DNA of 64,000 nt from an uncultured Chloroflexia bacterium (lineage in GTDB: Bacteria; Chloroflexota; Limnocylindria; Limnocylindrales; CSP1-4): the NCBI GenBank assembly GCA_963813535.1, contig CAWEZH010000002.1, positions 1,280,001 to 1,344,000 on the forward strand, in the 5' to 3' direction. Position numbers and translations under genes: made by a program. Each line of letters opens with the position of its first letter. Within the stretch, counting starts at the first letter, position 1. The notes below the pieces were generated by a model. It worked only from the letters and a program-made list of their open reading frames with translations, was not told where the DNA came from and did not search any database. Positions 12,558 through 33,587 of the stretch are shown here, piece by piece.

Positions 12558-12691
12558 CGTACGAAGCTCAGCAGGCCGGCAGCGACGACGGCGACGACGG
12601 CGACCAGGTACTGCAGCGCGAGCATCGTCCGGTCATGGGGTGGATCGACGTCCCATGAGCCGGTCGGCGTGGCGGCGGGATCGAACAGCAT
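12554..12691 (-). CDS. 45-aa small membrane protein
   Basis: GAGGG RBS; MLFDP..MLALQYLVAVVAVVAAGLLSFVR; stop overlaps the corA start. Confidence 0.6.
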   Translation of the reverse strand: MLFDPAATPTGSWDVDPPHDRTMLALQYLVAVVAVVAAGLLSFVR

Positions 12692-12854
12692 CGATGTAGG
12701 GCCCTCATGCGTCCGTGGTCGACGGCATCGTGCTGGTCGCCGCCATGCGACGAGGGCAGTTAGCGGAGCGTAGCGCATCGCGTCCGCATGACAACGCCGC
12801 AGTCGTGGCGCGTGCGGGCACCACCCCGCCGCTTCGTGTCCGCATCACTCGGAA

Positions 12855-12920
12855 TGCGAGCAGCCTGCAACGTCACTCGGCATCGCGCTGGCATCCCCGA
12901 CGCGTGCTTCCCCGTACGGT
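12855..12920 (+). promoter_or_regulatory. Direct-repeat operator + 44 nt + -10 element
   Basis: TGCGA-GCAGCC-TGCAA-N44-TACGGT. Confidence 0.7.
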
Positions 12921-12993
12921 CGGAACGGCCCACGGATGGCCGACCGGTGACGGCCTCATATCGGTCGCGCCTGGAACCCCAGGAGGTATACCC

Positions 12994-13155
12994 ATGCTTA
13001 AGCGACTTCTTCTTTTGGTGGCCCTAGGGGCTGCCCTCGCGGCCTGCTCGCCGTCCGGTAGCGCGAGCTCGCCGGGAACGGAGACCATCGCGCCGGTCGA
13101 GTCCGGCGTGCCGTCGGCCAGCGAGATGCCGAGCGAGTCCGCCTCGCCGTCCTGA
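12994..13155 (+). CDS. 53-aa small lipoprotein with Ser/Pro-rich tail
   Basis: AGGAGG RBS; MLKRLLLLVALGAALAAC lipobox; followed by a hairpin. Confidence 0.8.
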   Translation: MLKRLLLLVALGAALAACSPSGSASSPGTETIAPVESGVPSASEMPSESASPS

Positions 13156-13170
13156 TCGACCACAGCTACC

Positions 13171-13201
13171 GACGCCGGGCCCCGCAGTGGGGTCCGGCGT
13201 C
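13171..13201 (+). terminator. Intrinsic terminator-like hairpin
   Basis: GACGCCGGGCCCC / GGGGTCCGGCGTC stem. Confidence 0.7.
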
Positions 13202-13241
13202 TTCGTGTCCGGATCCCCGCGACCACGAAGTCACGCGGCGG

Positions 13242-13307
13242 ATTCATGCCGTTGTTACGCGCCGGCCCCCGTCCGTTGTCCGAAGACTTCGTGACGACGA
13301 CGACAGT
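13242..13307 (+). promoter_or_regulatory. Direct-repeat operator + 44 nt + -10 element
   Basis: ATTCA-TGCCGT-TGTTA-N44-GACAGT. Confidence 0.55.
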
Positions 13308-13378
13308 GGCGCCGAACCCCGAACGGGTCATAACCCCAGCAAGCGGGTGAGACGCCCGCAAGGGGAAGGAGGTAGATC

Positions 13379-13660
13379 GTGAGCATCATCGCGTGGATCG
13401 TGCTCGGTGCAATCGCCGGGTACTTGGCCGGTTTTCTCGTCAAGGGTGACGAGGGGCTTGGGATCATCGGGCACATCGTGCTCGGGATCGTCGGCGCGCT
13501 CATCGGCGGGTTCGTCGCCGGGGCACTGTTCAACAGCGATCCCATCAACGGGGCGCTCGACATCAGCTCCATCGTCGTCGCGACGATCGGTGCCGTCGCC
13601 ACGGTCGTGGTCGTGAGTGCCGTGATGGGCCGGAGCCGCGTGGGTCGCGGGCCCATCTGA
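13379..13660 (+). CDS. GlsB/YeaQ/YmgE family stress-response membrane protein
   Basis: IIAWIVLGAIAGYLA..IVLGIVGALIGG; AAGGAGGT RBS. Confidence 0.92.
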   Translation: MSIIAWIVLGAIAGYLAGFLVKGDEGLGIIGHIVLGIVGALIGGFVAGALFNSDPINGALDISSIVVATIGAVATVVVVSAVMGRSRVGRGPI

Positions 13661-13696
13661 GCCCCCAGTCCGGGCCACCGCCCGGACGCCTGAATG

Positions 13697-13726
13697 ACGG
13701 AGCCCACCTCGCCAGGTGGGCTCCGT
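13697..13726 (+). terminator. Hairpin (terminator-like)
   Basis: ACGGAGCCCACCT-cgcc-AGGTGGGCTCCGT followed by TGCTTT. Confidence 0.65.
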
Positions 13727-13762
13727 TGCTTTCACCATCAACGCACAGGAAGGAATCACCAG

Positions 13763-14239
13763 ATGTCGAGGATCGTCGAATCCATCGATGTGGACGTCCC
13801 CGTCCGCATGTCGTACGCCCAGTGGACGCAGTTCGAGGAGTTCCCGCGCTTCATGGAGGGCGTGAAGGAGGTCCGCCAGGTCGACGACACGACGATCGAG
13901 TGGACTGCTGAGATCAAGAGCATCGAACGATCGTGGAAGGCTGAGATCACCGAGCAGGAGCCGGACACCGTCATCGCATGGCGCTCCACGAGCGGCGCCA
14001 CGAACGACGGGCGAGTCACGTTCGAGCCGCTGGGCGAGAACCGGACGAGAGTCACCCTGCAGCTCGACGTCGAGCCCGATGATCCGATCGAGAAGGCCGG
14101 GGACGCGCTGGGCTTCGTCGAGCGCCAGGTGGAGGGAGATCTGCGCCGGTTCAAGGAGTTCATCGAAGCGCGAGGAACGCCGACCGGCGGCTGGCGGGGC
14201 GAGGTCGGGGGCGGCCAGAAGGTTGGGAGCAGCCGCTGA
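13763..14239 (+). CDS. SRPBCC / polyketide cyclase-dehydrase family protein
   Basis: SIDVDVPV..YAQWTQFEEFPRFMEGV..DLRRFKEFIE..GGWRGEV. Confidence 0.92.
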   Translation: MSRIVESIDVDVPVRMSYAQWTQFEEFPRFMEGVKEVRQVDDTTIEWTAEIKSIERSWKAEITEQEPDTVIAWRSTSGATNDGRVTFEPLGENRTRVTLQLDVEPDDPIEKAGDALGFVERQVEGDLRRFKEFIEARGTPTGGWRGEVGGGQKVGSSR

Positions 14240-14371
14240 GCCGCGAGGCCCATGCAAGGGCCAGCAGGCCGAGTGCACGGACGACCGTGACGTGAATGGG
14301 CCCACGCTGCTCATGTGGCTCCTGTACCACTGGGGGTCCGGGAGCCACATCTACGCTATGAGGACGACCCG

Positions 14372-14674
14372 ATGATGGACGCACCCGCCATCGAGCAGAC
14401 ACCAGGGACGCACCGCGCGCTCTTCGCGTGGTTCTCGAGTCCGCGCGTCGCGGTCCGGACCGCCGTCCGCCTCGGCGAGACGGTGCCTGGGGCCCGTGTC
14501 TGCATCCGACCGTCCGAGGATCACGGAGCTGAAGGGCCGGTCGTAGCGCTGAGCGCCCAGATCCCGTGGTCGTTGTCGACCATGGTGACCCGCCAGCTCA
14601 GCGGTCTCGGCGTCGCCGTCCTGTGGGATGCCGACGACATCGTTGACGAGCCGACTCTCCGAGCGGCCGTATGA
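14372..14674 (+). CDS. Hypothetical protein
   Basis: GAGGA RBS and plausible composition; no recognised family. Confidence 0.5.
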   Translation: MMDAPAIEQTPGTHRALFAWFSSPRVAVRTAVRLGETVPGARVCIRPSEDHGAEGPVVALSAQIPWSLSTMVTRQLSGLGVAVLWDADDIVDEPTLRAAV

Positions 14675-14680
14675 CCGCCT

Positions 14681-14746
14681 TGTCATGCGTCTGTAATGTC
14701 GCGAGCCTGCGACATGGCGGCAACGGGACACGCGCTGGCCTACGGT
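14681..14746 (+). promoter_or_regulatory. Direct-repeat operator + 44 nt + -10 element (candidate sRNA promoter)
   Basis: TGTCA-TGCGTC-TGTAA-N44-TACGGT. Confidence 0.72.
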
Positions 14747-14752
14747 CAGCCG

Positions 14753-14851
14753 AACAGAAAGATCACCACAAGGCGGGCGCTTGTGACGGGGCGCACCTCC
14801 TTTAGCACGGACGGTTCGGGTCCCCTCCCCGGGCCGTCCGTCGCCTTTTCT
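14753..14851 (+). ncRNA. Candidate small RNA with anti-Shine-Dalgarno seed
   Basis: Begins 6 nt below TACGGT; hairpin CACAAG/CTTGTG; unpaired CACCTCCTTT at 14794-14803; 14-bp stem with TCCCCTC loop and a T tract. Confidence 0.55.
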
Positions 14852-14885
14852 GCGTCAGATACCAGCACACACGAGAGGTCATGAC

Positions 14886-15239
14886 ATGAGCGCGACGACA
14901 TCCGGCCGCGGGAACTCCGCGGCGACAGACAACGATCCGAAGGAACGCCTGGCATCGACTGCCCGCCAGGCCGCCGATACGGTCGGCGGTGTGGCCGGTG
15001 AGGTCGCCGCTCGCCTGCCCGAGGCGGCCACGACGACACGGGACGCGCTCGAAGAAGCGAATCGCCGGGTCCGAGCGGGGTCTGACGAGACGCTCAAGCT
15101 CGTGGGCGCCGCGTCACTGGCATTCGCCACAGGCCTGCTCTTCGGCGGCGCCAATCGACTGCTGGTGATCGCCGCCCTCGTGCCTGCCGCGCTGGTCGGC
15201 TCGGAGTACGCCCAGCGCCAGACGTCGACCACCAAGTAG
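14886..15239 (+). CDS. Hypothetical membrane protein (helical N-terminus, C-terminal hydrophobic hairpin)
   Basis: GAGAGG RBS; two hydrophobic segments. Confidence 0.7.
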   Translation: MSATTSGRGNSAATDNDPKERLASTARQAADTVGGVAGEVAARLPEAATTTRDALEEANRRVRAGSDETLKLVGAASLAFATGLLFGGANRLLVIAALVPAALVGSEYAQRQTSTTK

Positions 15240-15267
15240 CGGTCACGTCCACGGCTTCGTCGCGCGG

Positions 15268-15333
15268 CGCAACGGCACTGATAGCAGCCGGCCGCCGCGA
15301 TGGGACATCCCGCAACACGCCCGGCCGTAAGTT
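15268..15333 (+). promoter_or_regulatory. Direct-repeat operator + 44 nt + -10 element
   Basis: CGCAA-CGGCAC-TGATA-N44-TAAGTT. Confidence 0.62.
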
Positions 15334-15379
15334 CGACCCGACCCGCGACCTGCGGGGGCGCGAAGGAGGTATCGAGCTG

Positions 15380-15583
15380 ATGGATGACGTGAAGCGCACC
15401 GCGCGTGAAGCGGAGAACGAGGCGAAGGAACAGGCTCGCCGAGCCGATGGCGATGAGAGCCTGGCCGACAAGGCCGCCAACGTTGGTGACGACGTCCGCA
15501 CAGGCCTTGGCAATGCCGGCGACAAGATCGACGAAGAGGTCGATCGCGCCAAGTTCCGCCAGGAGCACGGCGACGACGTCTGA
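15380..15583 (+). CDS. 67-aa hydrophilic CsbD/hydrophilin-like small protein
   Basis: AAGGAGGT RBS; highly charged; repeated ANVGDD/GNAGDK. Confidence 0.75.
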   Translation: MDDVKRTAREAENEAKEQARRADGDESLADKAANVGDDVRTGLGNAGDKIDEEVDRAKFRQEHGDDV

Positions 15584-15606
15584 TCGCCGACCCTGACCTC
15601 GAGATA

Positions 15607-15639
15607 GACGAAGCCCCGGCTCGCGGCCGGGGCTTCGTC
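15607..15639. terminator. Hairpin between convergent genes
   Basis: GACGAAGCCCCGGC-tcgcg-GCCGGGGCTTCGTC. Confidence 0.8.
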
Positions 15640-15661
15640 GCGTTTGACGACCGAAACCCCT

Positions 15662-16771
15662 TCACCTCGCCTTGCGTCGGCGGCTCGAACCTGCGGCCGT
15701 CCGTGCTCGCTGGCGGAGCAACCGCACGACCGCCATCTCTTCCGTCCGGTCAGCCTCGGTGGGCGGCGCCTGCTGCTGCTCGGCCGCGTCGACGAGGGCG
15801 CCACCGAGGCTCCCATCCAGATACGCATCGAGCACGGCGGGGTGGACGTAGCTGCCGCGAGCGACCGCCGGGGTGTTCCCGAGCTTCTCCGCCGTCAGCC
15901 GCATCGCCTCGACCACGTTCCGACGCGCTGCGGGCCCATGGTCCTCCGGCTGGAGGGCCCGAAGTGCGCGATAGGCGAGCAGCGTGCCGGCCCACGTTCG
16001 GAAGTCCTTGGCCGTGAAGTCGCCACCCGACGCCTCGCGCAGGTACTCGTTCACGTCGTCCGACGTGACGTCACGGAGCTCACCGTCCTCGTCCACGTAC
16101 TGGAAGAGGTCCTGCCCGGGCAGATCCTGGCAGCGGCGGACGATCGTCGCCAGGCGTCGGTCACGCAGCCCGACCTCGTGCATGGTCCCGCCCTTGCCCC
16201 GGAACCGGAAGCGCACGCTCGACCCGCGGACCTTGGCGTGTCGGTCGCGCATCGTCGTGAGGCCGAAGGATCTGTTGAGGCGTGCATATTCGTCGTTCCC
16301 GACCCGGATCAGCGTCAGTTCGAGCAGTCGGACGACAGTGGCAAGCACCTTCGCGCGCGACAGACCACGGCGAGCGAGGTCCCGCTCGCACCGACGGCGG
16401 ATGTGGGGCAACGCCTTGGCGAAGGCGATCATCCGCGCGAAGTTGTCGGTGCCGCGCTCGGCATGCCAGCGCGAGTGGTAGCGGTACTGCTTGCGCCCTC
16501 GTGCGTCGCGACCGGTCGCCTGCAGGTGCCCGTTGGGCCACGGGCAGATCCAGACGTCCGTCCACGCGGGTGGGATGACGATCGTGCGGATCCGCTCGAG
16601 GACGTCCGGATCGCGGATGGTTGCGCCGTCCGTGTCGCGGTACGTGAAGCCACGTCCGGCGCGGCGGCGGGTGAAGCCTGGGCGGCTGTCGGTCGAGTAG
16701 CGCAGGCCGCTGGCGCGTGCGACCTCACGCGGATCGGGGCGGCTGGCTGCAGTCGTCGGTGCGTCGGTCAT
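15662..16771 (-). CDS. DNA topoisomerase IB (bacterial, poxvirus-like)
   Basis: IPPAWTDVWIC, GRDARGRKQYRYH, IRVGNDEY, FRGKGG, FTAKDFRTW, LGNTPAVARGSYVHP. Confidence 0.95.
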   Translation of the reverse strand: MTDAPTTAASRPDPREVARASGLRYSTDSRPGFTRRRAGRGFTYRDTDGATIRDPDVLERIRTIVIPPAWTDVWICPWPNGHLQATGRDARGRKQYRYHSRWHAERGTDNFARMIAFAKALPHIRRRCERDLARRGLSRAKVLATVVRLLELTLIRVGNDEYARLNRSFGLTTMRDRHAKVRGSSVRFRFRGKGGTMHEVGLRDRRLATIVRRCQDLPGQDLFQYVDEDGELRDVTSDDVNEYLREASGGDFTAKDFRTWAGTLLAYRALRALQPEDHGPAARRNVVEAMRLTAEKLGNTPAVARGSYVHPAVLDAYLDGSLGGALVDAAEQQQAPPTEADRTEEMAVVRLLRQRARTAAGSSRRRKAR

Positions 16772-16822
16772 GACGGCCACGGTACGGGTGCCCGCCTCGC
16801 ACGGATACGGGTCGAGGGGCTT

Positions 16823-16888
16823 CGCTACATGCCTGCAATCTCGCATCCAAGCCGGGTTCGGCTTGCCGATAGGGACCATGCCGATACT
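16823..16888 (+). promoter_or_regulatory. Direct-repeat operator + 44 nt + -10 element
   Basis: CGCTA-CATGCC-TGCAA-N44-GATACT. Confidence 0.62.
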
Positions 16889-17004
16889 GGAAGTCGGTCC
16901 TGTCGCGACTCCTGCTCTGGGGGACGGTCGCGATAGGACTCCTTTCTACTCGGCGAACCGAGCCCGCAGGCGACGGTCGACCGGCCCCGCAGGAGACCCC
17001 GGTC

Positions 17005-17976
17005 ATGGACGCAGTCACCATCGACGGAGCATCGAAGCACTTCGGCGACGAGGTCGTCTTGAGCGACGTCACGATCTCCGTCCAGGAAGGTTCGATCCTC
17101 GGGATCATCGGGCCGTCCGGCGCGGGCAAGACCACACTGGTTCGCCTCATGACCGGTGCGCTCGCCCCGACCGAGGGCGAGATCCGGGTCATGGGCGAGG
17201 ACCCGCAGCACCTGAAGCGGCGCACACGCGAGCGGATCGGCTACATGCCCCAGCTGTTCGCTCTCTACCCCGACCTCACGGCCCGCGAGAACGTCGATTT
17301 CGTGGCTTCTCTGTTCGGCCTGCTGTGGTGGCGCCGCCGACGGCGGACGCGTCAGGTGCTCGAGCTGGTGGACCTGTGGGACGTGCGCAAGAGACGCGCG
17401 GGCCGACTATCGGGCGGCATGCAGCGACGCCTCGAGCTTGCCTCGGCCCTGGTGCACGACCCACAGATCCTGTTCCTCGACGAGCCGACCGCCGGGATCG
17501 ACCCGCTGCTCCGTGCCGCGATCTGGCACGAGCTGACGCGGCTCCGCGACGCCGGCCGGACCCTGCTGGTGACCACCCAATACGTCGGCGAAGCCGAGCG
17601 CTGCGACGCCGTGCTCCTCATCTCGGACGGCAGGGTCATCGCGACCGGCACGCCCGACGAACTGCGCCGGTCGGCGATCGGCGGCGACCTGGTGGAGATC
17701 GAGACATCCGAGCCGATCGACGCCAGCGCCCTCCGCAGCATCGGCGGAATCCGGCGCATCGAGCAGCGCGGGCCGAACGAGATCCGGGCGACCGTCGACG
17801 AAGCGTCCAAGGTCCTCCCGGAGATCGTCGAGGCGATCAATGCGCTCGGGATCGACGTCGATTCTGCTGCTGAGGCGCGCCCGTCCTACGATGAGGTCTT
17901 CGCCATCCTCGTCGAGCGGGCGCGGTCATCCCCGCCGGATGGCGAACGCACCGCCGGCGGCGAGCGAGCCGCCTGA
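17005..17976 (+). CDS. ABC-2 type transporter ATP-binding protein
   Basis: GPSGAGKT, LSGGM, LFLDEPT. Confidence 0.93.
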   Translation: MDAVTIDGASKHFGDEVVLSDVTISVQEGSILGIIGPSGAGKTTLVRLMTGALAPTEGEIRVMGEDPQHLKRRTRERIGYMPQLFALYPDLTARENVDFVASLFGLLWWRRRRRTRQVLELVDLWDVRKRRAGRLSGGMQRRLELASALVHDPQILFLDEPTAGIDPLLRAAIWHELTRLRDAGRTLLVTTQYVGEAERCDAVLLISDGRVIATGTPDELRRSAIGGDLVEIETSEPIDASALRSIGGIRRIEQRGPNEIRATVDEASKVLPEIVEAINALGIDVDSAAEARPSYDEVFAILVERARSSPPDGERTAGGERAA

Positions 17977-19169
17977 TGCGGACCATCCTCACCACCATCT
18001 GGCGGCTGCTCGCCTTCGTCGGCAAGGAGCTCGTCGAGACCGTTCGGCGACCAGGCGCGATCGTGAGCCTCGTGGTCGGCCCATTCCTGATCATGGCCGT
18101 GTTCGGGCTGGGATTCAGCGGCATCCGGCGCCCGCTCGAAACGATCGTCGTGATCCCGCCAGCGAGCCAGCTCCCCGCCACCGAGGCCGACTACCAGGAA
18201 CTCGCCGGACCTGCCCTCCACATCGCCGGCGTCGTCGGGGATCGGACCGAGGCAGAGGCGAGCCTGCGAGCCGGTGACATCGACCTCGTGGTGGTCGCCC
18301 CCGAGGATCCCGAGGGCGCCTTCCGGGCGGGCGAGCGCTCGACGATCGAGATCCTGGTCGACGAGGTCGACCCCGTGGCCGAGAACTACGCCACCATCCT
18401 CGGCGGCGCCCTGGCGAATGCGGTGAACCGACAGATCATCGAGCAGGCCGTCGAGGAGGGTCAGGGCTACGCGGTCCAGGCCGGCGAGGAGGCGGTGGAG
18501 GCACTGTCACCGGAGGTGGTCGCCGCGCCGACCGAGGCCCGCCTTGCCAACCTCGCACCACAGAGCCCGACCGTCACGTCGTACTTCGGACCGGCCGTCC
18601 TCGCGCTGATCCTCCAACACCTCGCCGTGACCCTCGTCTCGATGTCGCTCGTGCGCGAACGCTCCAGCGGTGTGATGGAACTGTTCCGGATCGCCCCGGT
18701 CACCGCCTCCGAGGTGCTCGCGGGCAAGGTGCTGGCCTTCGGCCTGCTCGGTTTCGTGGTCGCCGGACTGACGATCGTGCTGATGGTGACTTTCCTTGGC
18801 GTGCCGTCACTGGCCGATCCGGGGGCGCTCGCAGGGGTCGTGGGTCTGCTGCTCCTGGCGTCTCTCGGGTTCGGGCTGCTGATCGCCGTCGTCTCCGACT
18901 CGGAGCGGCAAGCCGTGCAGCTGTCCCTGCTGGTGCTGCTCGCCTCGGTGTTCTTCAGCGGCTTCGTCCTGGCCATCGACCAGTTCACGCCACCCGTGCG
19001 CGCGCTCGCGTATGCGCTACCGGTGACCCACGGGATCCAGCTGCTGCAGGACGTGATGCTGCGCGGGTCGACGAACAACCTATGGCAGGCCGGCGCGCTC
19101 GGCGTGATCGCCGCGGTGACGCTGATCGCGGCCTGGCTCCTGTTGCGCCGCAATATGCGAACGGCCTAG
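17976..19169 (+). CDS. ABC-2 type transporter permease
   Basis: N-terminal TM, extracytoplasmic loop, VRERSSG, multiple TMs, LPVTH. Confidence 0.9.
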   Translation: MRTILTTIWRLLAFVGKELVETVRRPGAIVSLVVGPFLIMAVFGLGFSGIRRPLETIVVIPPASQLPATEADYQELAGPALHIAGVVGDRTEAEASLRAGDIDLVVVAPEDPEGAFRAGERSTIEILVDEVDPVAENYATILGGALANAVNRQIIEQAVEEGQGYAVQAGEEAVEALSPEVVAAPTEARLANLAPQSPTVTSYFGPAVLALILQHLAVTLVSMSLVRERSSGVMELFRIAPVTASEVLAGKVLAFGLLGFVVAGLTIVLMVTFLGVPSLADPGALAGVVGLLLLASLGFGLLIAVVSDSERQAVQLSLLVLLASVFFSGFVLAIDQFTPPVRALAYALPVTHGIQLLQDVMLRGSTNNLWQAGALGVIAAVTLIAAWLLLRRNMRTA

Positions 19170-19183
19170 TAGCTCCGCAGCGC

Positions 19184-19249
19184 TGCCACGGGCCTGCAAC
19201 GCCCGCTCGCGCGATGCGCGCCAAGCCGTTGCGGCCTCACTGCCACCCT
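19184..19249 (+). promoter_or_regulatory. Direct-repeat operator + 44 nt + -10 element
   Basis: TGCCA-CGGGCC-TGCAA-N44-CACCCT. Confidence 0.62.
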
Positions 19250-19281
19250 GTGATCAGCGACCTCCCGCATGGAGAAGCCCG

Positions 19282-19467
19282 ATGACCGACGAACGAACCA
19301 ACGAGTTCCCGGGGACGCATACGGATGACGACGAGACGGGCGACGACGCCAGGGACGCCGTCGACCGCGAGCCGCAGCCCGACAAGGATGAGCCGAACCC
19401 GCTGCTGCGCGAGGGCGCGAGCGCCCCGGACGCCGCGGACATCGAGGACCCTGACGAGCAGCTGTGA
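19282..19467 (+). CDS. 61-aa acidic, probably disordered small protein
   Basis: GGAG RBS; D/E-rich; has its own candidate promoter. Confidence 0.7.
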   Translation: MTDERTNEFPGTHTDDDETGDDARDAVDREPQPDKDEPNPLLREGASAPDAADIEDPDEQL

Positions 19468-19492
19468 GAGCGGCGGCCTCGACGTCGCAGCG

Positions 19493-20623: not shown

Positions 20624-20716
20624 CGGTGGCTCCGAAAAACGAGGTTGACCGCGAACCCCTCGAGGGAGCCCGCGGTCATAGTGTCTCACTCCCGGTCCGA
20701 CCGGGAGTCCTAGGCG

Positions 20717-21163
20717 TTAGCGATCGGGATCGAGATCCGGCCGACGGCCTTCCTTGAGGTCCTCTTCGGTCTTGTCGCCGACGCCGGCGCCACCGGCAGC
20801 GCCGACCGCACCGCCAACGACCGCGCCGGGAGGCCCGGCCACCGCGGCACCGATGGCGGCGCCGGCGGCACCTCCGCCCAGTGCGCCGGTCCCGGAACCC
20901 GTCTCGTCGTCGCCTTCCGCGGCCTCACCGGCGACGGCACCACCGACCGCGCCGATCGCGCCACCGACGACGGCACCCGGAGGGCCGCCGACCGCCGCGC
21001 CGACCGCCGCACCCGCGAGGGCCCCGCCACCAGCGCCGAGCGCTTCGGCACCAACCTCGTCGTCGTCGTCGACGGCATCACGGCGATCCATCGCCTCCCT
21101 GTCGAGGGTGGGGTCGAGCGGGTCGACGTCACCATCGATGCGGTCCCTGTCAGTCCTATCCAT
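20717..21163 (-). CDS. Glycine-zipper repeat protein with acidic termini
   Basis: Two GAAVGAAVGGPPGAVVGGAIGA units; AAGGAGG RBS. Confidence 0.8.
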   Translation of the reverse strand: MDRTDRDRIDGDVDPLDPTLDREAMDRRDAVDDDDEVGAEALGAGGGALAGAAVGAAVGGPPGAVVGGAIGAVGGAVAGEAAEGDDETGSGTGALGGGAAGAAIGAAVAGPPGAVVGGAVGAAGGAGVGDKTEEDLKEGRRPDLDPDR

Positions 21164-21198
21164 CGTCGATCGGCCTCCTTGACCTGGGGGTCCAGCGG

Positions 21199-21264
21199 AC
21201 CGTACGGGACCGTTCCACGGCCGGATGTCATCGCCACTGGGTGCGGTGTATCACCCGGATATCA
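21199..21264 (-). promoter_or_regulatory. Direct-repeat operator + 44 nt + -10 element
   Basis: Minus strand reads TGATA-TCCGGG-TGATA-N44-TACGGT. Confidence 0.72.
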
Positions 21265-21374
21265 GCGGTCCGTGTGTGCTTCACGAGCGGTGTCACCTGT
21301 CACCGTCGAGCCGGCCTCGGACCGGCGTGGGTCATACTTCCTGCCGACCTCGTGGACCCGCAGGGAGGAGCGCG

Positions 21375-23030
21375 TTGACGGACCACGAACCGGGAACGGC
21401 AGCCACAGCTTCAGGCCGCGCCAAGGGCGAGATCGCGCGGACGCGCGACGTTCGCCTCGAGACCGGGCAGGCCATCCTCGCCGGTCTGTTCATCGCGTGG
21501 CTTGCGATCGCGACGAAGGCGGCGATCAACGAGGCAGTCGGGGCCAACTCCTATTACGTGATCCTGATGGCCGCGGCCGTGCTCGCGGCCTGGTTCGGCG
21601 GGCTCTCCGGCGGCATCACCGCAGTCGTCGCGACGGTCGTCCTGAACCAGGTCATCTTCGTCGGCAGAGAGAGCGCCCCGAATGCCGCCCAGTTCCTGCA
21701 GGCGCTCTACCTCGTCACTGCGACGGCGACGGTCCTCCTGGTGGCATCGCGCCGTGCCGCCACCGATCGCCTGGCAGATGCGCTGGCGGAGGTTGCGGCT
21801 CTGGCGGAGGAGGTCGAGGCGCGGGACGCCCGGCTCGAGCTGATGCTGTCGGCGTCCGGCACAGGCTTCTGGGAATGGGACATCGACACCGGTGTGCTGA
21901 CCTGGTCCGAGGCCATCTTCCGACAGCACGGCCTCGAGCCCGGTCCCGAGGCGCCGGAGTTCGCCGCCTACCTGGACATGATCCATCCGGACGACCGCGG
22001 GACGTTCGAGAGTGCCATCGCTTCAGCGCTCGACGATGTCGGCGGCTTCTCACTCGATTTCCGCGTCGTCTGGCCCGACGGCTCGATCCACTGGACCCAT
22101 GGCGCCGGCAGGATCTTCAAGGACGATGCGGGGCGGCCGATCCGGATGATCGGCACCGGCCAGGACATCACCGACCGTCGACGGATCTCCGACGAGCGCG
22201 ACCGACTCCTTGACGACGAGCGACGGGCCGGGGCATTCCGCGAGGCCTTCGTTGACGTCATCAGCCATGAGCTTCGAACGCCGATCACGACGATCATGGG
22301 GCTCGCCCAGATCCTGGCTCGGCCCGGACGCACCGATGACGAGGCGTCGCGGATGGCGCTCCTCGAGGACGTCCGCTCCGAATCGGAGCGATTGCATCGA
22401 CTCGTGGAGGATCTGGTCGTTCTCAGCCGCGTCGAACGCGGGCGCCTCGAGGTGGAGGCCGAGCCCATCGAAGCGCGCCGGCTCATCGACCGCATCGTCA
22501 CGCAGGAAGCGCGCGAGCTTCCGACCATCACGGTGGAGACGGATCTCGACCTCGACCTGCCGATCGTCGCGGGCGAGACCACCTATGTCGAGCAGATCGT
22601 GCGCAACCTGTTGAACAACGCCGCGAAGTACACGCCGGCGGGAACGCGGGTCGTGGTGTCGGCGAAGAAAGCCGACGGCGCCGTCGAGATCCGGGTGAGC
22701 GACGAAGGGCCGGGCATCCCGCGCTCCTCGCTCGATCGGATCTTCGAGCTCTTCTACCGGGACCCGACCAGCTCGCGCATCGTGGCCGGCTCGGGCATCG
22801 GCCTCTTCGTCTGCGCCAGCCTGGTCGAGGCGATGGGCGGGCGGATCTGGGCGCGGCGGCCGGAGGGAGGCGGCACGGAAATCGGCTTCGCCTTGCGGGT
22901 CCTCGAGCCGGATCCGTCGGACGACCATGATTGGGTGGCGGCCAAGCCACCGACCGCGACGCTGAGTGCGCCACTGGCGGCCCCGGATCCGACACCGGCC
23001 CTCAGCGAGGGAACGACCCAGGCCACCTGA
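21375..23030 (+). CDS. Membrane (DUF4118-like) PAS sensor histidine kinase
   Basis: Four TMs, PAS_3 (GFWEWD..IHPDDR..DGSIHW), SHELRTP, NLLNNAAKY; TTG start after GGAGGAG. Confidence 0.92.
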   Translation: MTDHEPGTAATASGRAKGEIARTRDVRLETGQAILAGLFIAWLAIATKAAINEAVGANSYYVILMAAAVLAAWFGGLSGGITAVVATVVLNQVIFVGRESAPNAAQFLQALYLVTATATVLLVASRRAATDRLADALAEVAALAEEVEARDARLELMLSASGTGFWEWDIDTGVLTWSEAIFRQHGLEPGPEAPEFAAYLDMIHPDDRGTFESAIASALDDVGGFSLDFRVVWPDGSIHWTHGAGRIFKDDAGRPIRMIGTGQDITDRRRISDERDRLLDDERRAGAFREAFVDVISHELRTPITTIMGLAQILARPGRTDDEASRMALLEDVRSESERLHRLVEDLVVLSRVERGRLEVEAEPIEARRLIDRIVTQEARELPTITVETDLDLDLPIVAGETTYVEQIVRNLLNNAAKYTPAGTRVVVSAKKADGAVEIRVSDEGPGIPRSSLDRIFELFYRDPTSSRIVAGSGIGLFVCASLVEAMGGRIWARRPEGGGTEIGFALRVLEPDPSDDHDWVAAKPPTATLSAPLAAPDPTPALSEGTTQAT

Positions 23031-23045
23031 GTCCGTCGCCGGCGG

Positions 23046-25736
23046 TCAGAGAGCGGCCGGGTCGACCTTGTCGGGATCGAGACCGAGATCACGCACCGCC
23101 TTCGCGGCCTTGGCCGGCGGGAGCGCCCCGCAGCGCGCAAGGGCGACCATGGTCGCGGCGGCGATGTGCTTCGGGTCGATCTCGAACAGCGCACGCAGGT
23201 CTTCGCGGGTGCCGCTGCGACCGAAGCCATCGGTGCCGAGCGAGAGGTAGTGATCCGGTAGCCAGCGCGCGACCATGTCCGGCAGAGCCTTCAGCCAGTC
23301 GGTCGCAACGACGATCGGGCCACCCTCGAACGGCAGGATCTGGCTGACGTACGGAACGCGCGGCTTGCGCGCGTCGGGGTGGAAGCGGTTCCACCGTTCA
23401 GCCTCGAGCGCCTCCCGTCGGAGGAGCGGGAATGACGGCGCGCTGAAGATCTCGGCCGCGACGCCGAACCGCTCGGCCAGCAGGTCGCGCGCAGCGATGG
23501 ACTGCTCGAGGATGGCTCCCGACCCGACCAATCGCGCCAGATGGGCGTCCTTGCCGATCGAGGGTGCCTCGGCGAAGCGGTACAGGCCGCGCAGGATCTG
23601 CTCGTCCGTCAGGCCCTCGGGTCGCGCCGGCTGCTTGTAGTTCTCGTTGTGGATGGTGATGTAGTAGAAGACGTCCTCGGGCTTCGCGCCGTACATCCGC
23701 TCGATGCCGTCGCGCACGATCGCTGCCAGCTCGTAGGCGTACGCCGGGTCGTAGCCGCGCACATTCGGGATATTCGCTGCGAGCAGGTGCGAGTGCCCGT
23801 CATCGTGCTGCAGTCCCTCGCCGGCGAGAGTCGTCCGTCCGGATGTCGCGCCCATCAGGAAGCCGCGGCCACGTGCATCGCCGAACTGCCACATCTGGTC
23901 GCCGGTCCGCTGGAAGCCGAACATCGAGTAGAAGATGTAGAACGGGATCATCGAGAGACCGTGCGTGGCATATGACGTGCCGGCCGCCTGGAACGACGCC
24001 ATCGAGCCGGCTTCGGTGATGCCCTCCTCGAGGACCTGCCCGTCGGTCGCCTCGCGATACGACAGCACCAGGTCGGAGTCGACCGGCTCGTAGCGCTGAC
24101 CCAGCGCGGCGTAGATCCCGACCTCCTTGAACAACGGGTCCATCCCGAACGTGCGCGCTTCGTCGGGGATGATCGGCACGATGCGCGGACCGAGCTCCTT
24201 GTCGCGGATCAGGTTCCGCAGGATGCGGCTGAAGACCATCGTCGTCGAGACCGGCGTCTGGCTGCCGCCCTCGAACTCGGCGTCGACCTCGGGCGCTGGA
24301 GCTGGCAGTGGCTTCGAGCGGACGACTCGCTTGGGGATCTCGCCGCCGAGTGCCACGCGTCGTTCGCGCAGGTACTGGACTTCCTCGGAGTCGGGGCCGG
24401 GGTGGTAGTACGGCGCGTCCTTGAGCTTGTCGTCCGGGATCGGGAGCTGGAGTCGATCGCGGAAGACCGTCAGCTCCTTCTCCGATAGCTTCTTGGCCTG
24501 GTGGGTGATGTTGCGGGCCTCGACGCCCGGACCGAGCGTCCACCCCTTCACGGTCTTGGCGAGGATGACCGTCGGGGCGCCCTTGAACTCCACCGCGGCC
24601 TTGTAGGCGGCGTACAGCTTCCGGTAGTCGTGACCGCCTCGGCGCAGCTTGGCAAGGTCGTCGTCGGAGAGGTGCTCGACGAGCTTCCGCAGCCGCTGGT
24701 CGGGGCCGAAGAAGTGCTCGCGGATGTAGCCACCGCCGGCGACGCTGAACTTCTGGAACTCTCCGTCGAGTGTGTCGTTCATCTGCTGGACGAGGACCCC
24801 GTCCACGTCGCGCGCAAGCAACTCGTCCCACTCGCGGGCCCAGATGACCTTGATGACGTTCCAGCCGGAGCCTCGGAAGACCGCCTCGAGCTCCTGGATG
24901 ATCTTGCCGTTGCCACGAACCGGCCCGTCGAGTCGCTGCAGGTTGCAGTTGACGACGAAGGTCAGGTTGTCGAGCCCTTCGCGAGCGGCGACATGGAGCG
25001 CGCCGAGCGACTCCGGCTCGTCCGTCTCGCCGTCGCCGAGGAAGGCCCACACGCGCGAACCCGACGTATCGAGCAGGCCGCGGTTCTGGAGATACCGATT
25101 GAAGCGAGCCTGGTAGATCGCACTGATCGGCCCGAGACCCATCGAGACCGTCGGGTATTCCCAGAAGTCGGGCATCAGACGGGGATGCGGATAGGAGCTG
25201 AGCCCCACGCCCGGCTTGCCCTCACGGCGGAAGTGGTCCAGCTGGCTCTCGCTCAGGCGTCCCTCCAGGAACGCGCGGGCATAGATGCCGGGGGCCGCGT
25301 GACCCTGGTAGAAGATCTGGTCGCCCGCCGCGCCGTCGTCCTTGCCACGGAAGAAATGGTTGAACCCGACCTCGTACAGGCTGGCCGAGCTGGCATACGT
25401 GGACAGGTGACCGCCGATGCCCGCGAACTGGTTGTTCGCGCGAAGCACCATCGCGACCGCGTTCCAGCGCACGATGCGACGGATGCGAAGTTCCATCGCC
25501 TCGTCGCCCGGGAAGGCCGGTTCCTGCTCCGGGCTGATGGTGTTGATGTAGCGCGTCTGCGTCAGCGGCGGCAGACCGATCTGCAACTGCCGGGCGCGCT
25601 TGAGCAACTTGTAGACGAGGAACCTGGCGCGGGTCTCACCCTCCTGCTCGACCACCTGGTCGAGCGACGTCATCCAGTCCTCGGTCTCCGCGGGGTCGAT
25701 GTCGGGCAGCTGGTGCTTGAACTCGTCGAAATACAT
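23046..25736 (-). CDS. aceE: Pyruvate dehydrogenase E1, homodimeric type
   Basis: YINTISPEQEP, GGHLSTYAS, SSYPHP, GDGETDEPES, GEGLQHDDG. Confidence 0.96.
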   Translation of the reverse strand: MYFDEFKHQLPDIDPAETEDWMTSLDQVVEQEGETRARFLVYKLLKRARQLQIGLPPLTQTRYINTISPEQEPAFPGDEAMELRIRRIVRWNAVAMVLRANNQFAGIGGHLSTYASSASLYEVGFNHFFRGKDDGAAGDQIFYQGHAAPGIYARAFLEGRLSESQLDHFRREGKPGVGLSSYPHPRLMPDFWEYPTVSMGLGPISAIYQARFNRYLQNRGLLDTSGSRVWAFLGDGETDEPESLGALHVAAREGLDNLTFVVNCNLQRLDGPVRGNGKIIQELEAVFRGSGWNVIKVIWAREWDELLARDVDGVLVQQMNDTLDGEFQKFSVAGGGYIREHFFGPDQRLRKLVEHLSDDDLAKLRRGGHDYRKLYAAYKAAVEFKGAPTVILAKTVKGWTLGPGVEARNITHQAKKLSEKELTVFRDRLQLPIPDDKLKDAPYYHPGPDSEEVQYLRERRVALGGEIPKRVVRSKPLPAPAPEVDAEFEGGSQTPVSTTMVFSRILRNLIRDKELGPRIVPIIPDEARTFGMDPLFKEVGIYAALGQRYEPVDSDLVLSYREATDGQVLEEGITEAGSMASFQAAGTSYATHGLSMIPFYIFYSMFGFQRTGDQMWQFGDARGRGFLMGATSGRTTLAGEGLQHDDGHSHLLAANIPNVRGYDPAYAYELAAIVRDGIERMYGAKPEDVFYYITIHNENYKQPARPEGLTDEQILRGLYRFAEAPSIGKDAHLARLVGSGAILEQSIAARDLLAERFGVAAEIFSAPSFPLLRREALEAERWNRFHPDARKPRVPYVSQILPFEGGPIVVATDWLKALPDMVARWLPDHYLSLGTDGFGRSGTREDLRALFEIDPKHIAAATMVALARCGALPPAKAAKAVRDLGLDPDKVDPAAL

Positions 25737-25789
25737 GCTCGTGTCTATCGTAGGGCGCTCCGTCCTCGGGCGGAGGTTGCGGGTGGGAA

Positions 25790-26179
25790 CTACTCCGTTT
25801 CGAGACCCTCCTGCGCCACGCCCTCCAGGCGGAGGGTGGTGTCGAGGATCTCGTCGCGGACCATCGACCGAGTCGACGGATCGCCCGCGTACTTGCGCTC
25901 CAACGCGGCCGAGGTTCGGGCGGTGGATCCGGGATCGTGGGCCGGGATCGCCCGTGCGGGTATCCGCCGCTTGCCGACGTGGATCGCGATCTCGGGGTTC
26001 GCCACCGCCTCCCGATACCACCTAGCCGTCGGACCACGCCAGGATCGGACGAACACATCGTCGCCGTCGACGACGGCCCAGATGGTCGTCCGATGGATCG
26101 GACCAGCGCCGCGGGACGTCTCGATGCGGACGGTCTTCGCCCGGTCGATGAGGTCCAGGTCGTCCTTCGTCATGGCCAT
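25790..26179 (-). CDS. DUF2255 family (split beta-barrel-like) protein
   Basis: TTIWAVVDGDDVFVRSWRG..WYR..KY. Confidence 0.75.
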   Translation of the reverse strand: MAMTKDDLDLIDRAKTVRIETSRGAGPIHRTTIWAVVDGDDVFVRSWRGPTARWYREAVANPEIAIHVGKRRIPARAIPAHDPGSTARTSAALERKYAGDPSTRSMVRDEILDTTLRLEGVAQEGLETE

Positions 26180-26248
26180 GGCTGCAGGGTAGCGGCGCCC
26201 GATGGCACGTGTCGCTGGGCTCGTCGCGGTCTGCGCGAGCGGCCGTCC

Positions 26249-26315
26249 TGTAATGCCGATGTATCGGTTTTGCAATGTCGGTCGGCCATCGGCGGCAGGG
26301 GTCGGCCGGGATGCT
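26249..26315 (+). promoter_or_regulatory. Triple direct-repeat operator upstream of the small gene and response regulator
   Basis: TGTAA-N6-TGTAT-N6-TGCAA; GATGCT at 26310. Confidence 0.65.
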
Positions 26316-33584: not shown

Positions 33585-33587
33585 CCG

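Follow-up and report, generated by a model that had tools for sequence, protein, structure and literature searches.

A fixed-spacing direct-repeat promoter module at putative stress-protection genes of a soil Chloroflexota bacterium and its predicted OmpR-family regulator

How is a cluster of small genes of the stress-protection kind controlled in an uncultured soil Chloroflexota bacterium of Limnocylindria type that is known from metagenome assemblies only? In the window, the whole 64,000-nt stretch of DNA analysed here, the strong sites of one direct repeat all fall within 4.3 to 26.3 kb, a segment best explained as an island of stress-protection genes. The repeat lies at a fixed distance from a promoter hexamer, the arrangement is conserved across species, and it is present at promoters of response-regulator genes. 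All 12 sequences listed in a preliminary description of this DNA were found at their coordinates and on their strands. Its interpretation was supported in part: comparative evidence favours a conserved promoter module at stress-type genes and at a response-regulator gene, with a sigma-A-like -10 hexamer. Its labelling of one product as CsbD-like was not confirmed.

The module consists of the repeat TGYNAY-N5-TGYAAY, whose period is 11 bp, and of a hexamer NANNNT set 44 nt further downstream. Its TGYNAY units are arranged head-to-tail, two at most promoters and three at the response regulator's own promoter, and the 3' end of the repeat lies 44, occasionally 43 or 45, nt upstream of the -10 hexamer. 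The repeat had originally been given as a 5-6-5 pattern; the repeat itself stands, but its half-site is better described as the hexamer TGYNAY. In its original form, YGHNA-N6-TGHWA, the pattern has 9 matches in the window versus 2.29 +/- 1.36 (largest 6) in 100 dinucleotide shuffles. The proposed 44-nt spacing is likewise enriched: repeat, 44 nt and NANNNT occur together 6 times versus 0.04 expected from shuffles (largest 1), namely at 12855, 14681, 15268, 16823 and 19184 on the plus strand and at 21264 on the minus strand. Seven promoters had been claimed to carry the module, and six fit, because the first half-site of the seventh (13242; ATTCA/TGTTA, GACAGT) departs from that description's own consensus, although its 44-nt spacing is present. 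When only intergenic DNA was considered (12,581 bases by crude gene calls, 500 shuffles), 6 repeats were found versus 0.65 (largest 4) and 4 composites versus 0.012 (largest 1). Three repeat matches (9358, 16823 and 21249 on the minus strand) count as coding because the longest ORF was taken, and they sit in the resulting N-terminal extensions. Every site points to a downstream gene that either has a ribosome-binding site or is leaderless, and the spacer between repeat and -10 was searched for a conserved column, with none found.

The leftmost site is a variant. On the minus strand (4342-4393; matrix 23.2 bits), the repeat TGTTAT-N5-TGCGAT (4393-4378) precedes TACGGT (4347-4342) by 30 nt, as had been claimed for a PT surface protein, so that its geometry differs from that of the module. 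The ORF downstream carries a PKD domain in profile searches (1821-4343, minus strand, start uncertain) and has no orthologue among the related loci compared. Upstream of a GAF-PAS kinase gene, the two repeat copies already described were confirmed at 9358-9373 and 9390-9405 (24.5 and 16.9 bits) together with CAGGCT at 9449-9454, the whole site spanning 9358-9454 on the plus strand; the hexamer lies 43 nt after the 9390 repeat, and no NANNNT was found 43-45 nt after the 9358 repeat. Also confirmed was the 45-nt site before a small membrane ORF and corA (11583-12416 or longer), where TGTCAT-N5-CGCGAT (12793-12778) precedes CACGAT on the minus strand (12727-12793; 18.5 bits); the corA orthologue of locus L004 is preceded by a repeat and, 44 nt after it, CACGCT. 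The plus-strand composite at 12855-12920 (TGCGAG-N5-TGCAAC, 44 nt, TACGGT) forms the promoter of a 53-aa lipoprotein gene (12994-13155). At 13242-13307, the weak plus-strand repeat ATTCAT-N5-TGTTAC (15.4 bits), 44 nt before GACAGT, precedes a GlsB-type gene (13379-13660; PF04226, 34.7 bits) and an SRPBCC gene (13694-14239; PF03364, 76.2 bits), both on the plus strand, and in both L005 and L007 the GlsB orthologue is preceded by a repeat with NANNNT 44 nt downstream of it.

The best repeat of the window, TGTCAT-N5-TGTAAT, 44 nt before TACGGT (14681-14746, plus strand; 26.4 bits), precedes an RNA and then a 117-aa gene. The sRNA candidate suggested here earlier proved to be a structured, conserved RNA of roughly 100 nt (14753-14854, plus strand): hairpin 1 carries the invariant stretch CGCUUGUGACGGGGCG and is followed by a terminator hairpin that has CCCCUC as its loop, and by a U-tract. 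A search of Rfam matched no family. Orthologues of the RNA promoter occur in L001 (692), L004 (2805) and L005 (3291). The 117-aa protein (14886-15239, plus strand) is, by translation, hydrophilic in its N-terminal part and hydrophobic in its C-terminal tail; it matches no Pfam family, and in the atlas it falls with Chloroflexota-only hypothetical families, with DUF883_C at 0.78 as a weak lead. In L001, L004 and L005 the repeat likewise precedes its orthologues, and in L005 the gene is separated from the RNA and has its own repeat promoter at 4355 on the minus strand. The next composite (15268-15333, plus strand; CGCAAC-N5-TGATAG, 44 nt, TAAGTT) is the promoter of the gene for a 67-aa hydrophilic protein (15380-15583), whose orthologue in L007 (6549-6773) is preceded by a repeat with GATCCT 44 nt downstream of it. 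This protein had been called CsbD-like, but Pfam gives no CsbD match even at E <= 1.

At 16823-16888, the plus-strand composite CGCTAC-N5-TGCAAT, 44 nt, GATACT is the promoter of an ABC-2 exporter, whose ATPase (17005-17976) and permease (17976-19169) genes were assigned by profile search on the plus strand; orthologous promoters occur in L001 (4277) and L006 (1905). Divergent from it lies a topoisomerase IB gene, likewise found by profile search and probably leaderless (15662-16784, minus strand), with TACCGT at 16784-16779 followed after 7 nt by an ATG at 16771. A degenerate minus-strand repeat overlapping the ABC repeat lies 45 nt upstream of this TACCGT. In L001 the counterpart, also on the minus strand, is a good repeat (TGCAAC-N5-TGCCAC, 44 nt, CACCGT) with an ATG 6 nt after the hexamer. 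Topoisomerase IB is probably a regulon member; the earlier target list, in which the sites named are real, had overlooked it. Further composites drive, on the plus strand, the gene of a 61-aa acidic protein (19282-19467; site 19184-19249, TGCCAC-N5-TGCAAC, 44 nt, CACCCT, 19.8 bits), for which no orthologue was found among the related loci compared, and, on the minus strand, a Gly-zipper gene (20717-21163; site 21199-21264, TGATAT-N5-TGATAC, 44 nt, TACGGT). The orthologous Gly-zipper promoters of L006 (6613, minus), L007 (12094, plus) and L008 (4928, minus) all have TACCGT at 44 nt. A terminator-like hairpin lies by the Gly-zipper gene at 20678-20646.

At the right end of the island lies the operon of a response regulator. 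The triple repeat reported at 26249 was found there (TGTAAT/TGTATC/TGCAAT at 26249, 26260 and 26271), followed by GATGCT (26249-26315, plus strand, matrix match), with a spacing of 45 nt from the first pair rather than 44. The first gene of the operon encodes, by translation, a 61-aa single-pass membrane protein (26346-26531, plus strand), and an equivalent small ORF stands between promoter and regulator in L001, L002, L003 and L005. The second encodes a complete OmpR-family protein with receiver and winged-helix domains in profile searches (26591-27346, plus strand), the proposed repeat binder and the sole such protein among the 52 window ORFs scanned, whose other regulators are of MarR and IclR types. 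Of the 13 evaluable loci, 9 keep a site of 12.8 bits or more upstream of the regulator orthologue, and 8 one of 16.4 bits or more, against a background of 848 windows with a 95th percentile of 11.5 bits; the sites of L010-L013 are weak or irregular (6.5, 10.0, 4.0 and 11.8 bits). L015, of another class, encodes a 61% identical regulator preceded by a triple repeat. In the window no kinase gene adjoins the regulator. A candidate partner is the GAF-PAS-HisKA-HATPase histidine kinase identified with Pfam at 9519-11579 (plus strand, no adjacent response-regulator gene), since kinases 50% identical to it over the C-terminal 347 aa (L009) and 44% identical over 227 aa (L014) lie directly upstream of the regulator orthologue. 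A second candidate is a PAS histidine kinase found by profile search (21225-23030, plus strand, start probably downstream of 21225), which is divergent from the Gly-zipper promoter and whose L004 orthologue (53% over 544 aa) adjoins a minus-strand repeat at 5065.

Conservation beyond the window was examined with a 22-nt matrix derived solely from 13 sites of the window and run at a threshold of at least 13 bits on 15 related loci, where it gave 40 matches. These are followed by NANNNT at an offset of 44 in 18 cases, 45 in 10 and 43 in 3, whereas the remaining 52 offsets tested (20-74) total 36, about 0.7 per offset. For TANNNT, the corresponding counts are 8, 3 and 2, with 3 in total over all other offsets. 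Orthologous promoters share descent, so these counts are not independent events, and frameshifts resembling assembly errors in several loci (L001, L004) make a spacing of 43 versus 44 nt uncertain there. The repeat stands before orthologues of the Gly-zipper, GlsB, 117-aa, small hydrophilin, ABC-2 exporter and CorA genes in several species. At the Gly-zipper, 117-aa, GlsB, YggT-like, ABC and response-regulator promoters, the repeat and the -10 are fixed while the 44-nt spacer has diverged, a pattern that supports reading them as the phylogenetic footprint of a conserved promoter module. In lower-GC Chloroflexota the repeat lies 43 nt before TAAAAT, TATAAT or similar (8 cases versus 0.73 per other offset), and loci from other phyla showed no spacing enrichment (2/0/2 versus 0.65). 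The recognition-helix stretch WGPEYRDD(L/V)Q(Y/I)LR(V/T)W(V/I)SR is common to L001-L022 and L024 and absent from all other compared loci. Repeats 43-45 nt from TANNNT occur in 12 loci (L001, L004-L009, L011, L014, L019, L020 and L022), all of which carry this stretch, as does L013, where the module was detected by the matrix alone; loci without it yield just 4 scattered chance-level matches, in 4 of 44 other-phylum loci.

The claim of housekeeping-sigma promoters agrees with the hexamer, which is sigma-A-like and reads TAAAAT or TATAAT in lower-GC relatives. In the module the -10 is often TAC(C/G)GT, and a conserved -35 element was sought in the spacer of module promoters without success. Start codons lie 6-7 nt past the hexamer at topoisomerase IB in the window and in L001, at the L001 ABC gene and at 5420 in L013, which supports its identity as a -10. 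The identity of the binder, the direction of its effect, the signal it answers and its partner kinase are inferred. In the scheme considered probable, the regulator encoded at 26591 would activate sigma-A-type promoters, its own included, from positions of about -72 to -57; a two-component system might then run the stress response in place of an alternative sigma factor, as had been suggested. Its phosphorylated form would most likely bind the repeat pair as a head-to-tail dimer and recruit RNA polymerase through direct contact, in the manner of class-I-type activators; such contact would explain both the rigid spacing and the missing conserved -35. By activating its own operon (small membrane protein and regulator) and probably a partner kinase gene, it would generate positive feedback. 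The proposed targets comprise the GlsB-type and SRPBCC proteins, the Gly-zipper protein, the 117-aa tail-anchored protein, two small hydrophilic or acidic proteins, the small lipoprotein, the ABC-2 exporter, CorA, the conserved RNA of about 100 nt and, probably, topoisomerase IB.

The link between this regulator and the repeat is one of guilt by association, and a different OmpR-family regulator, of which the rest of the genome surely encodes some, might bind the module, with the 26591 gene as one more target in a cascade. The lack of an adjacent kinase and the four orthologues without a good upstream site would fit such a cascade, which is nevertheless rather unlikely: the repeat precedes nine of the 13 evaluable orthologues and that of L015, the same recognition helix is present wherever modules exceed the chance level in a locus, and among the window ORFs scanned no winged-helix tandem-repeat binder other than the 26591 protein was found. 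It is improbable that an alternative sigma factor reads TAC(C/G)GT in a sigma-run stress regulon, with the repeat as an accessory activator or UP-like element. The -10 is indeed unusually uniform, more so than a generic TANNNT: TACGGT/TACCGT occurs in three window promoters at 44 nt, at topoisomerase IB and at 4347 on the minus strand, these five promoter-placed copies out of 15 in the window all lie inside the island, and the hexamer dominates the orthologous Gly-zipper and 117-aa promoters. However, many module promoters have other hexamers (GATACT, CACCCT, TAAGTT, CATGCT, CAGGCT), lower-GC relatives combine TAAAAT/TATAAT with ATGACA, similar to TTGACA, 18 nt ahead of it, a housekeeping pattern, the spacer holds no conserved ECF- or SigB-type -35, and the window ORFs scanned include no sigma or anti-sigma gene.

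That the repeats serve repression or silencing, or that the regulator represses, is very improbable. Repression from certain positions is known for OmpR-family proteins, RpaB among them, but the RpaB repression sites described in passages of PMC6525291 overlap the transcription start instead of lying at about -65. Here every site is far upstream of the core promoter and keeps the same distance from it, and the promoters have no -35 consensus, which is the pattern of activator dependence. Chance, finally, has next to no probability. The motif is degenerate, was defined by eye and after the fact, and the matrix was trained on the sites first listed; yet the shuffle controls contradict chance, independent spacing peaks appear in other species, and the 44 other-phylum loci show no enrichment. 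A chance origin of the module is refuted by the window shuffles and these peaks.

The proposed activation by the 26591 regulator can be compared with known systems. DrRRA of Deinococcus radiodurans is an OmpR-family regulator with positive control of stress genes, but it belongs to another phylum, and in the passages of PMC10778927 available no fixed-spacing module is described and the putative sites look unrelated to TGYNAY-N5-TGYAAY. Closer is KdpE, whose site at E. coli kdpFABC is TTTATA-N5-TTTACA and whose footprint there falls within -72 to -50, according to passages of PMC3264566; this 6-5-6 geometry (11-bp period) and the upstream position are those of the module. The recognition-helix region (VWGP...YLR...) also resembles KdpE-type proteins of the compared loci, and many close homologues are named KdpE by JGI automatic annotation. 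In contrast, the NCBIfam KdpE model gives 180.9 bits against a cut-off of 325, the half-site read towards the promoter is TGYNAY rather than TTTAYA, the module has many targets rather than one operon, the regulator gene is not beside a KdpD-type kinase, and no kdp genes were found among the window ORFs scanned. The best-scoring NCBIfam model is RpaB (211.3 bits, below the equivalog cut-off of 330). Passages of PMC6525291 describe RpaB as an OmpR-family regulator with a global role; it recognizes imperfect direct repeats, and the sites from which it activates lie upstream, centred near -51 and ranging from -66 to -45. The core TTACA of its HLR1 site is, by our own comparison, the reverse complement of TGTAA, which may serve only as a lead. 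HLR1 differs in having 8-nt repeats 2 nt apart with a 10-bp period instead of 11, the RpaB regulon concerns photosynthesis and light acclimation, and RpaB was not found linked to any Chloroflexi regulon in the literature searched. Tandem winged-helix binding to direct repeats is also shared with PhoB at the pho box and with PhoP, RegX3 and MtrA of M. tuberculosis. By sequence, the closest solved structures are M. tuberculosis PhoP (169.8 bits), RegX3 (168.3), MtrA (165) and KdpE (163.5), and the regulator falls below every NCBIfam equivalog cut-off (MtrA 201/300, PhoB 186/296). The pho box takes the place of the -35 element rather than sitting at about -65. Regulons of SigB, RpoS and EcfG usually contain GlsB/transglycosylase-associated, SRPBCC, Gly-zipper and small hydrophilic proteins, and the gene content of the island is of this kind. 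It differs from them in promoter architecture: no alternative-sigma pattern was found here, and the shared element is followed, 44 nt downstream, by a sigma-A-like -10.

All twelve sequences quoted in the preliminary description are present at the positions and on the strands that it reported. The half-site is better read as a hexamer, TGYNAY, and by our own count the base after the originally proposed pentamer is a pyrimidine in 12 of the 13 sites used for matrix training. The operator thus takes the form TGYNAY-N5-TGYAAY, with an 11-bp period, and is followed after about 44 nt by an NANNNT hexamer read as the -10 element. In the window, where G+C is about 70%, the pattern as first written (YGHNA-N6-TGHWA) occurs nine times, compared with 2.29 +/- 1.36 (largest 6) in 100 shuffles, and the composite of this pattern, 44 nt and NANNNT occurs six times, compared with 0.04 (largest 1). 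Intergenic DNA alone (12,581 bases) contains six repeats versus 0.65 (largest 4) in 500 shuffles and four composites versus 0.012 (largest 1); the intergenic calls behind these figures are crude, and three matches counted as coding lie in N-terminal extensions that arise from the choice of the longest ORF. The 44-nt composite is therefore far commoner in the window than in shuffled sequence. The spacing was reported for seven promoters and is present at all of them, but the first half of the site at 13242 (ATTCA) breaks the consensus proposed with it.

With a matrix trained on the 13 sites, no match of at least 13.2 bits was found outside 4.3-26.3 kb, and the best score in 27-64 kb was 11.2 bits, so the repeat sites form a local island. 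A third soluble GAF histidine kinase without a regulator gene beside it (49059-50336) and MarR-type and IclR-type regulators (5188-6132 and 54320-55171) are also encoded in the window, and no repeat site lies near any of them. Words resembling GCGATG or GACATC occur in some of the 44-nt spacers, for example at 21245-21205 (minus strand), 15284-15327 and 19200-19243, at slightly shifting offsets and not as a conserved column.

The transcription units behind the sites were assigned from Pfam and from their translations. They encode a 53-aa lipoprotein (12994-13155), a transglycosylase-associated/GlsB protein (13379-13660; 34.7 bits against PF04226, above the gathering cut-off of 25.3) together with an SRPBCC protein at 13694, a 117-aa protein at 14886 with a hydrophobic C-terminal tail and no family, a 67-aa hydrophilic protein (15380-15583), an ABC ATPase with an ABC-2 permease (17005-19169), a 61-aa acidic protein (19282), a Gly-zipper protein (20717-21163, minus strand), a small membrane ORF with CorA, a GAF-PAS histidine kinase (9519), and, in one operon, a 61-aa membrane protein (26346) and the OmpR-family response regulator (26591-27346, plus strand). 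The 67-aa ORF had been called CsbD-like, a label that Pfam does not confirm: no CsbD match was obtained at E <= 0.01 or at E <= 1. Atlas neighbours of the 117-aa and 67-aa proteins are hypothetical families limited to Chloroflexota, and the weak leads for them are DUF883_C (0.78) and a YtxH-like family (0.83). A terminator-like hairpin (20646-20678, minus strand) lies directly 3' of the Gly-zipper gene, where it overlaps the start annotated for the GT4 glycosyltransferase ORF (19493-20689).

The topoisomerase IB gene, on the minus strand, carries TACCGT at 16784-16779, only 7 nt ahead of an in-frame ATG at 16771, and is therefore probably leaderless; a degenerate repeat lies 45 nt upstream on its own strand. 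In L001, one of the loci around homologues of the regulator in other genomes, a good repeat stands 44 nt ahead of CACCGT in the topoisomerase IB promoter region (minus strand, about 4160-4300), with the ATG 6 nt further on. In the window, topoisomerase IB and the divergent ABC exporter have their repeats back to back in one shared region, an arrangement kept in L001 and L006. The SIMPL gene (8548 to about 9180, minus strand) was left out of the member count because no repeat lies 43-45 nt from its candidate TACCAT.

Related loci were gathered by one genome scan with the regulator as query, which returned Chloroflexota MAGs. Identity to the regulator is 77-92% in L001-L013 and L021, several of them titled Limnocylindrales or Limnocylindria, and 53-65% in L014-L018, and the remaining loci belong to more distant Chloroflexota and to other phyla. 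Relatives keep a gene order in which AceE is divergent from a small membrane ORF, the regulator, isochorismatase and the 5'-3' exonuclease. The AceE, isochorismatase, exonuclease and IMPase genes are split over frames in L004 (10001-11371 and 6707-9626) and L001 (10808-13141), and the regulator ORF of L004 runs into the isochorismatase gene. These splits look like assembly indels rather than biology, so little weight should be placed on one-base differences in spacing in these two loci.

In 21 loci (314,659 bases), the window-trained matrix produced 54 matches scoring 13 bits or more, against a mean of 15 over twenty shuffles. Hexamer distances were read for 40 matrix matches in 15 high-GC related loci at offsets 20-74. 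NANNNT follows the repeat at offset 43 in 3 cases, at 44 in 18 and at 45 in 10, with 36 occurrences in total over the other 52 offsets, while the stricter TANNNT gives 2, 8 and 3 at these offsets and 3 in total at all others; such counts run over orthologous promoters and are not independent events. The largest NANNNT count elsewhere (4, at offset 34) corresponds to the second pair of the triple repeats. The spacing rule thus reappears in species that had not been used to define it. In orthologous promoters the repeat and the -10 hexamer keep their positions and the spacer sequence differs, and no conserved spacer column appears in the 40 aligned high-GC promoters. Start codons fall 6-7 nt past the hexamer at L001 4349, at L013 5420 and in the topoisomerase IB genes, which supports its assignment as the -10 element.

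Several members recur behind the repeat in relatives of the window. The 117-aa protein does so in L001, L004 and L005, and the Gly-zipper protein in L006, L007 and L008, where, as in the window, TACGGT or TACCGT stands at 44 nt. GlsB is found behind the repeat in L005 and L007, the small hydrophilin in L007, the ABC exporter in L001 and L006, and CorA in L004, each in addition to the window. The GT4 glycosyltransferase has its own repeat promoter in L004 and L005, and a YGGT-family membrane protein follows the repeat in L006 (10990-11403), L007 (5482-5901; 30.5 bits against PF02325), L008 (10971-11381) and L010 (9476-9913). A YGGT-family gene adjoins the regulator gene in L006, L008, L010 and L013. 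None of the 21 loci searched yielded an orthologue of the lipoprotein, the 61-aa acidic protein, the PKD protein, SIMPL or SRPBCC.

The link between the repeats and the regulator can be followed upstream of its own gene. On the coding strand, within 500 nt of the gene in 13 evaluable loci (L021, with 138 nt upstream, was omitted), the best site reaches at least 12.8 bits in nine loci (L001-L009) and at least 16.4 bits in eight, the 95th percentile of 848 background windows being 11.5 bits; L010, L011, L012 and L013 score 6.5, 10.0, 4.0 and 11.8 bits. The first pair is extended by a third repeat unit in the window, L002, L003, L005, L006 and L008, and a triple repeat is also present in L015, a MAG titled Dehalococcoidia whose regulator is 61% identical. 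The -10 element of the regulator promoter is weak, (C/G)ATGCT or similar, at 44 or 45 nt. These putative sites, 11-bp-period repeats upstream of the regulator's own and neighbouring genes, fit the direct-repeat binding of the OmpR/PhoB family.

The recognition-helix stretch WGPEYRDD(L/V)Q(Y/I)LR(V/T)W(V/I)SR is common to L001-L022 and L024 and absent from the other loci, and in a plain pattern scan the module follows this helix across the locus groups. Among orthologues (14 loci, 32 pattern matches), TANNNT occurs at offsets 43, 44 and 45 in 2, 7 and 2 cases, with a mean of 0.06 per other offset. Distant Chloroflexota (22 loci, 56 matches) give 8, 1 and 2, with a mean of 0.73 and a largest count of 3 elsewhere, and other phyla (44 loci, 60 matches) give 2, 0 and 2, with a mean of 0.65. 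All eight offset-43 matches in distant Chloroflexota come from L019, L020 and L022, where the -10 elements are TAAAAT (four times), TATAAT, TATGAT, TAAACT and TAGACT; most sites in these loci also have, 18 nt ahead of the -10, an ATGACA- or ATAACA-like hexamer (offsets 19-24), and most have a T-tract. The GC-corrected matrix missed these lower-GC sites and the plain pattern recovered them (L019 10737 and 15521; L020 3113 minus, 3993, 6960 and 9269; L022 5086 minus, 9877 minus, 10730 and 16175 minus). In each of the three loci one such promoter lies immediately 3' of the regulator gene, and the genes behind it in L020 and L022 encode similar small proteins of about 85-100 aa.

The proposal that these are housekeeping-sigma promoters gains support from the TAAAAT/TATAAT-type -10 and ATGACA-like -35 elements of the lower-GC relatives. 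No -35/-10 pair of SigB, EcfG or RpoS type was found in the aligned promoters, whose -10 is TANNNT-like; an ECF-type promoter with the second half-site as the -35 element (TGCAAC, then CGAT or CGTC) was rejected on finding no fixed spacing in the sequences inspected. Consensus sigma-70 promoters were not found in 12400-21400. A CRP-like palindrome was ruled out, the halves being direct and not inverted repeats. The preferred reading is activation by the response regulator. If the hexamer occupies -12 to -7 (for topoisomerase IB, -13 to -8), the repeat pair would lie at about -72 to -57, where a tandem dimer of the regulator, held at a rigid distance, may contact RNA polymerase in a class-I-type manner. 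This reading is proposed because of the rigid distance, the lack of a -35 consensus and the single orientation towards the gene. The distance of the proposed activator site is fixed, with peaks at 44/45 nt and at 43 nt in lower-GC relatives, and the -35 element is weak or absent in the high-GC set, whereas the lower-GC relatives do have ATGACA-like -35 elements. Positive feedback could arise from the third unit at the regulator promoter and from the two sites ahead of the kinase gene (9358/9390).

The regulator itself has a receiver domain (PF00072, 106.8 bits, residues 7-116) and a winged helix (Trans_reg_C, PF00486, 70.5 bits, residues 151-226), and in alignment with Mycobacterium tuberculosis (Mtb) PhoP its DDE and LLDIVMPDLDG motifs match up, in keeping with a phospho-acceptor aspartate. 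Its nearest solved structures are Mtb PhoP, RegX3, MtrA and KdpE (164-170 bits), and it falls below the cut-off of each of these NCBIfam equivalog models: RpaB (NF045944) 211.3 against 330 bits, MtrA (NF040689) 201.3 against 300, PhoB 186 against 296, and KdpE (NF007820) 180.9 against 325. At E <= 1e-60, 2,809 homologues were found among 8,000 candidates scored; the best 120 of these 2,809 are 83-99% identical, and some clusters hold from several hundred to more than 1,100 members. The automatic JGI pipeline names many close homologues (among P0004-P0119) KdpE. This label is probably misleading, because the NCBIfam KdpE score falls far short of the cut-off and the vicinity contains no kdp genes: none of the 52 window ORFs scanned belongs to a Kdp family, and the neighbours are AceE, isochorismatase and the 5'-3' exonuclease. 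KdpE is the nearest precedent for the repeat geometry: it binds TTTATA-N5-TTTACA, and its footprint lies between -72 and -50 (PMC3264566). RpaB activates from HLR1 sites centred at about -51 (range -66 to -45), which are 8-nt repeats with a 2-nt gap (PMC6525291) and so differ from the 11-bp period found here. The sites printed for DrRRA look unrelated to the present repeat.

A conserved two-hairpin RNA of about 100 nt accompanies the module. It lies at 14753-14854 in the window, at 799-905 in L001, at 2877-2978 in L004 and at 3365-3471 in L005. In the window it follows the 14681 promoter, with the repeat and TACGGT both upstream of the RNA, folds at -55.6 kcal/mol (z = -3.2), and ends, as in L004, in a terminator-like hairpin (14807-14841 in the window) with a U-rich tail. 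The four copies share an invariant 16-nt stretch, CGCTTGTGACGGGGCG, and an invariant CCCCTC loop; in RNA form these are CGCUUGUGACGGGGCG and CCCCUC, the C-rich loop belonging to the terminator hairpin. Over the four sequences, 92.3% of cells are compatible with pairing, compared with 83.0% in shuffles and 43-50% when the partners are slid, and 8 of 26 pairs are altered on both sides versus 3.7 in shuffles, with only four sequences behind these figures. This gives modest evidence that the secondary structure is conserved with compensatory changes. No Rfam family matched at its gathering score anywhere in the window; the sole match in 14600-15000, ftsZ-DE, is at chance level (E = 0.43). A covariance model of the RNA found only its four training copies at E < 0.01 in the window and 36 loci.

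In L001 and L004 the RNA precedes the 117-aa gene. In L005 the RNA is on its own: it has a repeat promoter to itself (22.4 bits, with TAGTCT at 44 nt), a convergent ORF stops at the 3' end of the RNA, and another repeat promoter serves the 117-aa gene. The RNA would be either an independent small RNA or a leader that attenuates and is also able to act alone. Pairing of the C-rich loop with ribosome-binding sites is speculation.

The preliminary observation is thereby confirmed and extended, and its regulon interpretation is largely plausible, with the response regulator as presumed binder; its claim of a general stress response run in place of a sigma factor overreaches. The system is best read as an OmpR-type activator regulon, mechanistically ordinary, in a poorly known lineage, with an unusually clean spacing rule and a new RNA attached. 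A wider reading, which we regard as tentative and rather unlikely, is that a Chloroflexota-wide OmpR-family master stress regulator does the job of alternative sigma factors, with a protectant regulon, a rigidly spaced operator kept across classes of very different GC, and a post-transcriptional arm of its own in the new small RNA with the invariant C-rich loop. If so, a master stress regulator would be abundant in metagenomes under the pipeline label KdpE. Limnocylindria-type Chloroflexota are known almost solely from metagenomes. Among the literature matches listed, no paper addressed this system or an RpaB-type regulon in Chloroflexi, nor gene regulation in Limnocylindria-type Chloroflexota, on which all were ecological or taxonomic. 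The site matrix and the spacing rule constitute a testable regulatory code with which a stress regulon can be predicted in any genome of the phylum. The finding also marks out, as likely stress effectors, one new RNA and several proteins that are specific to Chloroflexota and have no known function.

As to the partner kinase, a kinase related to the 9519 GAF-PAS protein is encoded directly upstream of the regulator in L009 and L014. The L009 kinase is 50% identical to the 9519 kinase versus 46% to the PAS histidine kinase at 21225, and the L014 kinase 44% versus 40%; these identities favour the 9519 kinase as candidate partner only slightly. The orthologue of the 21225 kinase adjoins a repeat in L004. 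Elsewhere in the window, 33108-40462 holds an F420-related cluster that includes a PNPOx-like protein, two luciferase-like monooxygenases, an F420-0:gamma-glutamyl ligase and a pyridine nucleotide-disulphide oxidoreductase.
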